Part shown: one piece after another, positions 57,877-59,642 of the stretch
How positions within the stretch are numbered: position 1 is the first letter of the stretch
Layout: each line of letters begins with the position of its first letter
Origin: a virus
Length of the DNA stretch: 64,000 bases
Strand: one strand, 5' to 3'
IMG/VR virus record: IMGVR_UViG_3300029319_000017
Coordinates: 1 to 64,000 of that record
Notes under the pieces: generated by a model
Database searches by the model: none
Told to the model about the DNA's origin: nothing
What the model saw: only the letters and a program-made list of their open reading frames with translations
Made by a program: the position numbers and the translations under genes

Positions 57877-58587
57877 TTAATTTAATTTATATTTAATTTT
57901 ACCATCTTCTATATACAAACCTTCACGCTCTTTTATAGCCTGTCCGTTTAAATTATATAGTATATTGTTGGTTTTAGATTTATTTATTAATTCATTTATA
58001 GACGAGTTACAAGGTTGTCCTGTATCACAATCTATGTATTCTGTAACATATTCTATAAACTCTACATATTCTATTTCTACAATTGTATCGTAAACAAATA
58101 CGTCAACATATTCAATAACATCTACAAAAAGAGTATCTAAAACGTCTTCGTAAATGGTTACTGTATCTGTTATATAAATGTATTCTGGAACAAACACTTC
58201 TACTTCTACAGTGTCTATTACAATGTTGTATACATATTCTGTATTAACTATAGTATCAAATATTGTTTCATATATAGTCTCATATTCTATTTCATATATT
58301 GTATCACACTCTTCCCCAATAGGAGGTAAACAATCTAATGGTGATGTTGGTTCTGCGTTATCTTCATCAGAAGCATCTACACAATCTTCCCACCCATCAT
58401 TAAGATAAAATAAATCAGGACCATTAGGTACGCATCCATTAGGAGAATACTGTGTCCAATTTGCTGGATCATCACCGCAATAAAATCCATTTTGTTGTGC
58501 GCATTCTAAACATAGTTGTTGAAAGTCAAATTGCGAGTAAGCAAACGAGCTTACAAACGCAAATAATATTATAAATAATTTTTTCAT
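57877..58587 (-). CDS. secreted protein with LDL-receptor class A-like motif, DT(V/I) repeats and T9SS C-terminal-domain-like tail
   Basis: Signal MKKLFIILFAFVSSFAYS|Q; NDGWEDCVDASDE; repeated Y/F.DT[VIL]; SINEL...LYNLNGQ.....GLYI.DGK.KYK. Confidence 0.75.
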   Translation of the reverse strand: MKKLFIILFAFVSSFAYSQFDFQQLCLECAQQNGFYCGDDPANWTQYSPNGCVPNGPDLFYLNDGWEDCVDASDEDNAEPTSPLDCLPPIGEECDTIYEIEYETIYETIFDTIVNTEYVYNIVIDTVEVEVFVPEYIYITDTVTIYEDVLDTLFVDVIEYVDVFVYDTIVEIEYVEFIEYVTEYIDCDTGQPCNSSINELINKSKTNNILYNLNGQAIKEREGLYIEDGKIKYKLN

Positions 58588-58589
58588 AA

Positions 58590-59642
58590 TTAAAAGAATA
58601 AATAGTTAAATCCAAATTTTACTTCATATACTGGTTTTTCCCAGTATTTTATATGTGTTCCCTCTATAAATAATCCTAGGTTTTTTGTTATTCTTTGTCC
58701 AAATACCATTCCTGCATCCCATTCTAACCAATCTAGATCTGATTTACCGTAATCAAATGAATAATCATCTAAGCCGTAATGATACGGTAAGCAATTAACC
58801 CAAGCATGTAACCAAAACTTAGGTGTATATTTATAATATGCAATTCCTACTACTGCACTTAATTCTTTTTGTATTCCTAATTTTTCTAATTCTCTTTCAT
58901 TAAATCTTGCAACTGCATCCCCAAAGTGGTGGTTAAAGAACTCATCATTACTAGTTGCTACAAGAATAGAATCACCTCCTGATACATCATACCAGTTATT
59001 ATTAACATAGAAGCCTTGGATCCATTGTTCAGGGGCATATCCAAAATCTTCAGCTAATTGTTGGAAGGTTGATTCGCCTGGTACCCAAAAATCCCTGATT
59101 GGTACAAAGCCATAAGCAGGATGAGCTCTAACCACTGCTCCTACTGTAAAGTCCCAGTTTCCTGAGTTTATTCTATATCTTGTGTCAAAAGATGTATATT
59201 GCAAGTTTACTCTTTGATTATCTTTGTATTGGACTTTAGTGACGCATTTTTCACCCAAGTATCTAATCCAAAAATTTTGATCAGTAAACTTTTCACCACG
59301 ATTACGTATAAAAGAATAATTAAACAAATACTCCCAACCATTAGAATTACCAATAGTAACGTTGTCTGCCACAGCTCTTTCAGTACCATAATACCATGTT
59401 TTAACTTTGTATTCATAATCAAATCTGGCTATCTTACGAATACCTATTGTTAAATTGTAATCGTAAGGATTAATTTCTGTTATATCTACATATCCTTTAT
59501 CTATTGCTCTGTAATCTTCTCTTTCAGAAAAAGAAGTATTTGTACTTACAGATGTATAAAATGTAGAGTATTTAAAAAAGTTTTTTATTTGTGCATTTCC
59601 TACTGCACACATTAATATAAGTAAAATTATTATATTTTTCAT
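58590..59642 (-). CDS. putative outer-membrane beta-barrel protein
   Basis: Signal MKNIIILLILMCAVGNA|Q; many alternating aromatic beta-strands; ends YEVKFGFNYLFF (BAM beta-signal with terminal Phe). Confidence 0.7.
   Translation of the reverse strand: MKNIIILLILMCAVGNAQIKNFFKYSTFYTSVSTNTSFSEREDYRAIDKGYVDITEINPYDYNLTIGIRKIARFDYEYKVKTWYYGTERAVADNVTIGNSNGWEYLFNYSFIRNRGEKFTDQNFWIRYLGEKCVTKVQYKDNQRVNLQYTSFDTRYRINSGNWDFTVGAVVRAHPAYGFVPIRDFWVPGESTFQQLAEDFGYAPEQWIQGFYVNNNWYDVSGGDSILVATSNDEFFNHHFGDAVARFNERELEKLGIQKELSAVVGIAYYKYTPKFWLHAWVNCLPYHYGLDDYSFDYGKSDLDWLEWDAGMVFGQRITKNLGLFIEGTHIKYWEKPVYEVKFGFNYLFF

Follow-up and report, generated by a model that had tools for sequence, protein, structure and literature searches.

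Among the described phage systems that act on the cell envelope, the closest to the locus analyzed here are the two-component spanins, such as Rz/Rz1 of phage lambda. These are encoded beside the holin and endolysin by overlapping genes and consist of a small type II inner-membrane protein with a helical periplasmic domain and a small outer-membrane lipoprotein with a lipobox cysteine. According to the spanin survey of Kongari et al. (2018), 91 of 677 phages of Gram-negative hosts, that is, about one in seven, including Bacteroides and Croceibacter phages, lack a recognizable spanin; the authors of the survey remark that 'an OMP could act as an o-spanin', OMP being an outer-membrane protein (PMC6139136). 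An alternative means of outer-membrane disruption in a spanin-less phage is gp28 of phiKT, the 'disruptin', a small cationic peptide (bioRxiv 10.1101/515445). Here we analyze a locus in a 64,000-nucleotide stretch of viral DNA, the first 64 kb of the 87,892-bp IMG/VR record IMGVR_UViG_3300029319_000017 (CheckV completeness 100%), hereinafter the window. The locus encodes P1, a predicted outer-membrane beta-barrel protein, next to P2, an exported acidic protein, and we tentatively suggest that P1 and two conserved partners, the predicted small inner-membrane protein g116 and an exported thioredoxin-fold (Trx-like) protein, belong to a lysis-linked, spanin-like envelope module. The original prediction, made from the sequence of the window, was that P1 and P2 remodel the surface of the infected cell through the beta-barrel assembly machinery (BAM) and the type IX secretion system (T9SS) of the host.

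Predicted outer-membrane beta-barrel protein P1

P1 (58590..59642, minus strand; 350 aa) and P2 (57877..58587, minus strand; 236 aa) are encoded by adjacent open reading frames (ORFs), with 2 nt between the TAA stop codon of P1 and the ATG of P2, in agreement with the gene layout initially described; the ATG of P1, in turn, overlaps the stop codon of the gene upstream (TAATG). The N-terminus of P1 consists of MKN, a hydrophobic core and GNA/Q, which, by inspection of the sequence and a hydropathy heuristic, delineates a signal peptide of about residues 1-17/18 (nt ~59589-59642, minus strand), with Q18 conserved in at least 90% of the sequences in alignment A1. The signal peptide of P2, assigned by sequence inspection, encompasses residues 1-18 and is followed by Q19, which is invariant in alignment A3. 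In both families, the mature parts are conserved, while the leaders vary in sequence yet retain the same character, lysine-rich and then hydrophobic, with a conserved glutamine at the end; because of this pattern, both leaders are likely to be cleaved Sec signals, as had been proposed. Glutamine in the +1 position after the signal peptide is the 'Q-rule' of Bacteroidetes (PMC5837995). In a heuristic scan of the complete genome, only P1, P2 and the Trx-like protein come out as credible Sec-signal ORFs, and the leaders of P1 and of the Trx-like protein are of the signal peptidase I type.

A search at E<=0.001 detects 303 homologs of P1, of which the best 120 are 64-88% identical to it. No Pfam, PHROG or NCBIfam family matches P1 at useful significance, and the same is true of P2 and the four upstream neighbors. 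Scanning 36 members of the P1 family (alignment A2) against Pfam yields only scattered single matches (best E 0.012), and the profile of A2 matches PDB sequences only at E>=0.26. The PorP_SprF model (PF11751) gives no match at E<=10 across the genome and none at E<=1 on the P1 protein itself.

The class of the protein is indicated by the predicted structure. The AlphaFold2 (AF2) model from the single sequence is uninformative (pLDDT 30.3), whereas the one obtained with the 36 sequences of A2, divergent full-length relatives from a profile search with 27-88% identity, has a pLDDT of 74.3 and a pTM of 0.69 and contains 12 long antiparallel strands. Between strands 2 and 3, there is a segment of about 30 residues (aa 72-99) that is highly conserved but modeled with low confidence, and residues 181-255 form a helical insert. 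In the Foldseek comparison with PDB, all matches listed at E<=0.005 are outer-membrane barrels, mostly 12-stranded, among them NanC (1.2e-4), EstA (9.5e-4) and FapF (3.8e-3), with EspP, NalP, the COG4313 channel and intimin/invasin as further fold neighbors. Among the viral models of BFVD, the top match is an unnamed homolog (5e-29), followed by phage 'porin/OMP' models, many of which, like P1, represent phage genes for predicted host outer-membrane proteins. The named Atlas clusters nearest to P1 are outer-membrane barrel families as well, at 0.92-0.93, and are rated as leads only.

Sequence features noticed in the original prediction, namely amphipathic strands and a C-terminal aromatic residue, hold across the family. 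Regardless of the coordinates of the model, the predicted strands of P1 are dyad-amphipathic throughout the alignment (2.11 against 1.18+/-0.25 in shuffled sequences, with 2 of 2000 shuffles reaching 2.11), the mature protein contains no hydrophobic helix, and the C-terminus is ...KFGFNYLFF. Of the 87 complete homologs, 75 end in an aromatic residue, F (70) or Y (5), and 12 in another residue. P1 is therefore predicted to be a Sec-exported, BAM-type outer-membrane beta-barrel of about 12 strands. The model supports this class, with fold-match TM-scores too low for the assignment of a subfamily. P1 resembles the 12-stranded outer-membrane barrels, such as the NanC/KdgM porins, the autotransporter translocators, FapF and the COG4313 channels, in strand number, antiparallel meander and terminal aromatic residue, but shares only 6-12% identity and TM-scores of 0.2-0.5 with them, matches none of their sequence families, and differs in possessing the 80-residue helical insert and the conserved 30-residue segment that separates strands 2 and 3. 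Lom and Bor of phage lambda are examples of outer-membrane proteins encoded by phages, and both are accessory genes of temperate phages; P1, unlike these, is retained with fixed partners down to 27-42% identity in apparently virulent, crAss-like phages.

Relatives of P1 are encoded in 590 of the 599 viral stretches retrieved by pattern matching. The 12 'cellular' relatives found among species genomes all come from contigs of metagenome-assembled genomes (MAGs; L085-L096) and, because the labels of these contigs are mutually inconsistent (Pelagibacter, Parvibaculum, Nitrosopelagicus, Woesearchaeota, Rickettsiales, Maricaulis and Flavobacteriales), look like phage contigs mis-binned into MAGs; several also carry g116-like and Trx-like genes. 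The P1 family appears to be restricted to phages, as far as can be judged from a scan of species genomes with a single peptide pattern, derived from a 14-sequence alignment, that would miss distant cellular relatives lacking the pattern. Divergent members of the family (P0243, P0244, P0246, P0252, P0254-P0256 and others in A2) contain an EF-hand/dockerin-like D-x-N-x-N/D-G-x-x-D loop in the long insert between strands 7 and 8, which is absent from P1 of the window. The idea that this loop substitutes for P2 was rejected, given that the motif is present in only 2 of the 92 related loci described below.

Conserved neighbors of P1

Gene order was compared in 92 loci, namely the best 80 of the 599 viral stretches and the 12 MAG contigs. 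Among the 72 loci with at least 1.5 kb of sequence downstream of P1, 67 encode a g116-like protein and 67 a Trx-like protein, with both present in 66. The median gap between the P1 stop codon and the next gene of this cassette is 2 nt, and the g116 and Trx-like genes overlap in 54 of 69 pairs as well as in the window. A holin or endolysin is encoded within 6 kb in 52 of the 62 loci with at least 4 kb downstream of P1. The set of fixed neighbors accompanies P1 even where the P1 sequences have diverged to 27-42% identity.

The g116 protein (54602..54952, minus strand) combines an N-terminal transmembrane (TM) helix, predicted with a TM heuristic, with a Pro-rich linker and a conserved helix of about 45 residues (alignment A5), and is predicted to be a small inner-membrane protein that resembles an i-spanin in topology only. 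The exported Trx-like protein (54225..54605, minus strand) matches the Thioredoxin family PF00085 with 36.9 bits against a cut-off of 23.5, and its homolog in L070 does so with 28.5 bits. It lacks the CxxC motif, which is replaced by WASWN in the window and by the consensus 'FWAEWN' in 31 sequences (alignment A6), but retains the cis-Pro loop.

The lysis genes follow in the same orientation. The endolysin-like protein (53208..53816, minus strand), the gene for which is 400 nt from the g116/Trx-like pair, matches phrog_3000 (1.3e-35) and the endolysin family phrog_33083 (1.4e-14); its counterpart in L070 contains Peptidase_M15_3 (62.3 bits) and matches the endolysin family phrog_894. The holin (52831..53205, minus strand) belongs to phrog_3427, a holin family (1.2e-30), and a tblastn search with it returns 18 matches in deposited phages, several of them annotated as holins, including those of Vibrio and Nonlabens phages. 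On the strength of these matches, the two neighbors can be considered genuine lysis genes.

In the window, P1 and P2 are followed by eight further genes and then by g116, the Trx-like gene, one ORF, the endolysin and the holin. One of the intervening genes encodes g70 (56638..56850, minus strand), a 70-aa protein with two hydrophobic segments that shows 67-91% identity across relatives and is found within the cassette in 31 of the 92 loci. The ORF between the Trx-like and endolysin genes (53819-54211, minus strand) encodes a protein of about 125 aa beginning with MATLNATLTL that matches no family and recurs, sometimes duplicated, in related cassettes (L006, L072 and L083). The late strand carries P1 and P2, with tail-fibre-like genes on one side of the pair and the holin and endolysin genes on the other. 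The original placement of the pair inside a virion morphogenesis operon accordingly holds for the strand and for the proximity of tail-fibre-like genes, but the neighbors that are fixed among the relatives are those of lysis.

P2 itself is not one of the fixed neighbors. It is encoded in 46 of the 51 loci in which P1 is at least 57% identical to that of the window, the other five being contigs that end at or just after P1, and in none of the 41 loci in which P1 is at most 44% identical. The resulting 46 of 92 loci all belong to one clade, so the proposed P1-P2 module is not an obligate pair across these phages.

The phage and its probable host

The window is assigned to a marine crAss-like phage because it encodes CrAss_Ring_1 (48849-49808), CrAss_Ring_2 (50723-51418) and the crAss muzzle protein crAss_MUZ (42586-48849; a 2,087-aa ORF), all detected with Pfam, with the Crassvirus major capsid protein (Crass_capsid, Pfam) encoded in the part of the record beyond the window. 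The relatives of this phage come from marine metagenomes. Comparison with deposited phages, at the level of both DNA and proteins, shows no match for the region at the DNA level and none for P1, P2, g116 or the Trx-like protein; only the holin has relatives there. The minus strand carries every gene between about 17.6 kb and the end of the window. Within positions 52500-62800, 4 terminator-like sites were found against 2.6+/-1.9 expected, which is no evidence either way on separate transcription units, and promoter-like sites are below expectation in a scan that does not cover Bacteroidota promoters.

Bacteroidetes are the hosts of Crassvirales (PMC10136315). A Bacteroidota host is well supported for this phage by the crAss markers, by the signal peptides ending before glutamine in accordance with the Q-rule, and by the presence of genuine T9SS cargo in the cassettes of four relatives (see below).

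A putative lysis-linked envelope module

The constant partners of P1 sit beside the endolysin and holin in the relatives, and for this reason we favor, tentatively and at somewhat less than an even chance, the reading that P1 and its partners are a lysis-linked, spanin-like envelope module. The linkage of P1 to holin and endolysin genes more likely points to the end of infection than to remodeling of the cell surface. Under this scenario, P1 would be exported through Sec, cleaved by signal peptidase I before the glutamine, and inserted by the host BAM as a barrel of about 12 strands in the outer membrane of a marine member of Bacteroidota. With P1 in the outer membrane, g116 contributing an inner-membrane anchor and a periplasmic helix, and the redox-dead Trx-fold protein in the periplasm, the three would constitute an envelope set found only in phages that performs or assists the last step of lysis, the breach of the outer membrane. 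Such a set would, in effect, resemble a spanin system, with a barrel in place of the usual outer-membrane lipoprotein. P2 would be an accessory of one clade that was inserted into the cassette; it is strongly acidic, is predicted to be exported through Sec, and contains a diverged LDL-A calcium module (see below) probably borrowed from the secreted-protein repertoire of Bacteroidota.

The parallels with two-component spanins extend to the location beside holin and endolysin genes, the overlap of genes, the presence of an outer-membrane member, and the small type II inner-membrane protein with a helical periplasmic domain, a part taken here by g116. There are differences as well: the outer-membrane member is a predicted barrel of about 330 residues rather than a small lipoprotein with a lipobox cysteine, a third, Trx-fold periplasmic protein is always present, and no spanin family model matches. 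The distance from the phiKT disruptin is that between a barrel and a peptide; small K-rich proteins (g98 and g115) adjoin P2, however. In a more specific form, which we regard as possible rather than probable, the locus would represent a three-part, phage-only apparatus for breaching the outer membrane that is absent from the models of lysis, with a BAM-inserted 12-stranded barrel as the anchor, an inner-membrane coiled-coil, and a cysteine-less Trx-fold adaptor between them, joined by clade-specific, acidic, calcium-binding accessories (P2, and full T9SS cargo elsewhere) that act at burst.

Several observations weigh against this reading. The fold matches of P1 have low TM-scores throughout (TMq 0.21-0.34, rmsd >=10 A), and barrel closure and strand number are inferred rather than seen in coordinates. 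The g116 protein matches no spanin family, the best hit being to an Rz-like PHROG at noise level (E 0.092). In the window, P1 is separated from the g116/Trx-like pair by 3.6 kb and eight genes, including P2 and tail-fibre-like ORFs. Furthermore, neither a holin nor an endolysin is encoded within 6 kb in 10 of the 62 loci with sufficient room, and g116 is missing from 5 of 72. The loci are interrelated, such that the conserved order may in part reflect inheritance or the shared late timing of exported proteins rather than a shared function. No barrel is known to participate in the fusion or rupture of membranes at lysis. Finally, some relatives encode, next to P1 or the Trx-like gene, small ORFs (61-68 aa) with lipobox-like leaders (L019 6778-6963, L047 4278-4478 and L066 8166-8372; leaders LAAGC, FLSSC and TISC), and these could be the real o-spanins. 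No counterpart was found in the window, and a heuristic scan of the complete genome revealed no credible lipoprotein in the vicinity of the lysis genes.

The P1 barrel, encoded in at least 590 viral contigs and tied to the holin and endolysin as well as two fixed envelope partners, is a concrete candidate for the opening of the outer membrane by an abundant group of ocean phages and by crAss-like phages generally. These phages draw on the export routes of their hosts, namely Sec with the Q-rule, probably BAM and, in some lineages, T9SS with true cargo, which bears on the annotation of many 'hypothetical' exported phage proteins. In the main texts of the open-access papers searched, neither a barrel within a phage lysis cassette nor phage-encoded T9SS cargo of this kind is described.

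P2 and a diverged LDL-A module

P2 belongs to a family with 1425 homologs. The mature protein contains about 47 D/E residues, its only K/R residues (7) being confined to the last 50 positions, and nine cysteines that are conserved in A3. The N-terminal domain (aa 26-86; 58330..58512, minus strand; ...NDGWEDCVDASDE...), for which a low-density lipoprotein receptor class A-like (LDL-A-like) calcium-binding motif had been proposed, does contain the calcium-cage motif DGWEDCVDASDE (DG..DC.D.SDE), with little or no variation across A3, in which D64, G65, W66, D68, C69, D71, D74 and E75 are invariant. The Ldl_recept_a model (PF00057) itself stays below threshold on P2, with 11.5 bits against a cut-off of 24.1, and aligns only at model positions 23-36, the half that includes the calcium cage; the 24.1-bit threshold is also reached in 9 of 14 control genomes.

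Homology is established through longer proteins. Eight of these share the N-terminal module of P2, and two, P0396 and P0393, are 61% and 58% identical to it over 54-57 residues (E 2e-18). In P0396, the homologous stretch is recognized by Pfam as Ldl_recept_a with 30.4 bits, above the threshold. In addition, all 15 of the weak PDB sequence matches of the P2 family profile are chains containing LDL-A. Because of the 61% identity to a stretch of P0396 called Ldl_recept_a by Pfam, the N-terminal domain of P2 is considered a diverged LDL-A module that, judging from the alignments, has lost the two canonical flanking cysteines. Residues 26-86 contain six cysteines, but the one expected before DG is replaced by Asn and the last is displaced; the homologous stretch of P0396 retains both. 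The module shares the calcium cage DG-x-x-DC-x-D-x-SDE with LDL-A, but the cysteine following SDE is 11 residues away instead of 3, and there is an extra N-terminal CxxC. No protein outside the P2 family, either in the rest of the genome or among the 92 loci, matches the module at E<=0.01, with the single exception of a blastp match to an ORF of L083 (3.75e-4, in a small database).

The module is followed by an acidic region (aa 95-186; 58030..58305, minus strand) rich in beta-branched and aromatic residues, the feature previously described as a DT[VI] stalk. Its 92 residues are almost solely V17, I15, E15, Y13, T12, D10 and F5, and its length varies among the homologs, the family as a whole ranging from 148 to 310 aa, although the region is conserved within A3. 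At the DNA level, positions 58249-58306 show a weak tandem repeat of 12/24 nt.

Directly downstream of P2 are the genes for g98 and g115, K-rich proteins of 98 and 115 aa (57570-57866 and 57193-57540, respectively, both on the minus strand), which are paralogs with ...GGSNNASYSYQDFLDL as their common C-terminus. In many related loci (L012, L034, L070 and L072), P1 too is flanked by small ORFs of very basic composition (KR 20-60). These basic proteins could be DNA-binding, internal, or cationic membrane-active peptides similar to the phiKT disruptin.

The P2 tail, type IX secretion and surface remodeling

The C-terminal part of P2 (aa 187-236; 57880..58029, minus strand; ...ILYNLNGQAIKEREGLYIEDGKIKYKLN) consists of a CxxxxxC motif and a basic tail of 43 residues, and was originally thought to resemble the C-terminal domain (CTD) of T9SS cargo. 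This claim did not survive comparison with the available models. Por_Secre_tail (PF18962) matches neither P2 at E<=1 nor any part of the genome, even at E<=10. In three Flavobacteriales MAGs, which served as the positive control, this model detects 39, 13 and 12 CTDs scoring over its cut-off. NCBIfam models give no match to P2 at E<=1. A dedicated CTD profile, constructed from 30 genuine marine CTDs of these MAGs, scores only 2.6 bits on P2 of the window and 12.5 bits on the best member of the family, there only in CTD columns 11-38, which correspond to one strand. Hhalign aligns the P2 tail with the CTD over 19 columns with a probability of 18%, and the alignments of P2 to CTD-bearing relatives end before the tail. 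The T9SS CTD is described as a seven-strand sandwich with an essential architecture (PMC11285876), and the tail is too short for such a domain because only 43 residues follow the last cysteine, compared to about 75 positions of the CTD model. By sequence, the tail is not recognizable as a T9SS CTD, resembling a single CTD strand and no more, and because it is not a recognizable type IX secretion signal, the periplasm would be the default location of P2.

Genuine cargo is nevertheless encoded in some of the relatives. Four ORFs of related loci (L088 3015-5996, L083 8765-11086, L086 3686-6184 and L087 36-548), detected with the dedicated CTD profile and confirmed by Pfam, carry Por_Secre_tail above the cut-off (50.2, 30.0, 29.7 and 53.7 bits). 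Three are complete (774-994 aa) and start with a Sec-type leader, and the fourth comprises 171 aa at the start of a contig. All four are very cysteine-rich and acidic and are encoded in or beside the P1 cassette: in L088 and L087 immediately upstream of P1, in L083 between the Trx-like and holin genes, and in L086 after the Trx-like gene. They match no Pfam family other than Por_Secre_tail, and the P2 profile shows no significant match to them. The L083 protein has D.YGDGM motifs in its N-terminal domain and, in addition, about a dozen tandem, cysteine-flanked modules of about 30 residues that follow the pattern GCTD..A.NYD..AN.DDGSC. These findings indicate that some lineages of these phages do encode T9SS cargo at this position of the cassette.

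The principal alternative to the lysis-linked module is the surface remodeling initially proposed, with P1 as an outer-membrane anchor or porin and P2 brought to the surface by the host T9SS, resulting in receptor masking, superinfection exclusion or altered adhesion. Similarly to type A T9SS cargo, P1 and P2 come from a probable Bacteroidota host and have Sec signals with glutamine at +1. The module of P2 is common to proteins that end in genuine CTDs (P0393-P0396), true type A cargo is encoded in or next to the cassette of the four relatives, directly upstream of P1 in two cases, and the best member of the P2 family weakly matches one CTD strand. The adjacency of P1 and P2, only 2 nt apart, recalls the sprB-sprF arrangement, in which a barrel gene adjoins the gene for a secreted protein. 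Proteins exported under the Q-rule that may modify the outer membrane have been reported for phages of P. gingivalis (PMC10367356). Of the original proposal, the barrel features of P1 and the Bacteroidota host stand, whereas the T9SS half fails for P2 itself, given that its tail is too short and is missed by models that readily find CTDs in Flavobacteriales. The comparison with type B cargo and its PorP/SprF partners fares no better: PorP_SprF finds nothing even at E<=10, and PorV-like structures are not among the fold neighbors listed for P1. Moreover, P2 is missing from each of the 41 loci with P1 of at most 44% identity, P1 is always accompanied by g116 and Trx-like genes where the contig allows, and the strong conservation of P1 with fixed partners is unlike that of an accessory moron. 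On balance, surface remodeling seems unlikely.

Other possible functions of P1 and its partners

Fold neighbors of P1 include channels and secretion pores (FapF, EstA, EspP, NalP and NanC), which raises the possibility that P1 is a secretion or uptake channel, either a pore that exports P2, as FapF and autotransporter barrels do, or a porin that increases nutrient uptake. The adjacency of the two genes and the composition of the central region of P2, almost all beta-formers and acids, would fit an exported substrate. However, half of the loci encode P1 without P2, the TM-scores are too low to choose a barrel subfamily, and a porin role would leave the linkage to holin, endolysin and an inner-membrane coiled-coil unexplained; we consider such a function quite improbable.

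Doubtful to a similar extent is the possibility that P1, g116 and the Trx-like protein regulate the timing of lysis or sense superinfection from the periplasm, in the manner of an antiholin or of Spackle, a role known from T4 biology, without themselves breaching the outer membrane. All members of the trio are envelope proteins encoded beside a holin, and a Trx-fold that keeps the peptide-binding cis-Pro loop without the catalytic cysteines fits a binding or sensing protein. Against this, none of the three resembles a known antiholin or immunity protein, and the known antiholin mechanisms need no outer-membrane barrel.

That P1 and P2 are tail or fibre components of the virion, with hydrophobic N-termini that are not export signals, is hardly credible: although both genes are on the late strand downstream of tail-fibre-like ORFs, the virion matches of nearby genes to PHROG belong to those other genes, neither P1 nor P2 matches a virion-protein family, their leaders keep the signal-peptide character and the conserved glutamine, and P1 is predicted to be a barrel with membrane-type amphipathic strands and a terminal aromatic residue.

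Additional large ORFs in the window

Two further features of the window are worth mentioning. A giant ORF of 4,786 aa (22665-37025, minus strand) is accompanied by ORFs of 1,666, 696, 1,164 and 2,087 aa, the last of which is the muzzle protein; the giant ORFs of crAss-like phages include the virion RNA polymerase and cargo proteins. The end of the window is spanned by a cysteine-rich ORF of about 1,300 aa (62706-63998, minus strand, continuing in L002 2-2599, minus strand), in which an SprB-repeat match falls just below the threshold (27.6 bits against a cut-off of 28); this protein may be a tail fibre or an adhesin.

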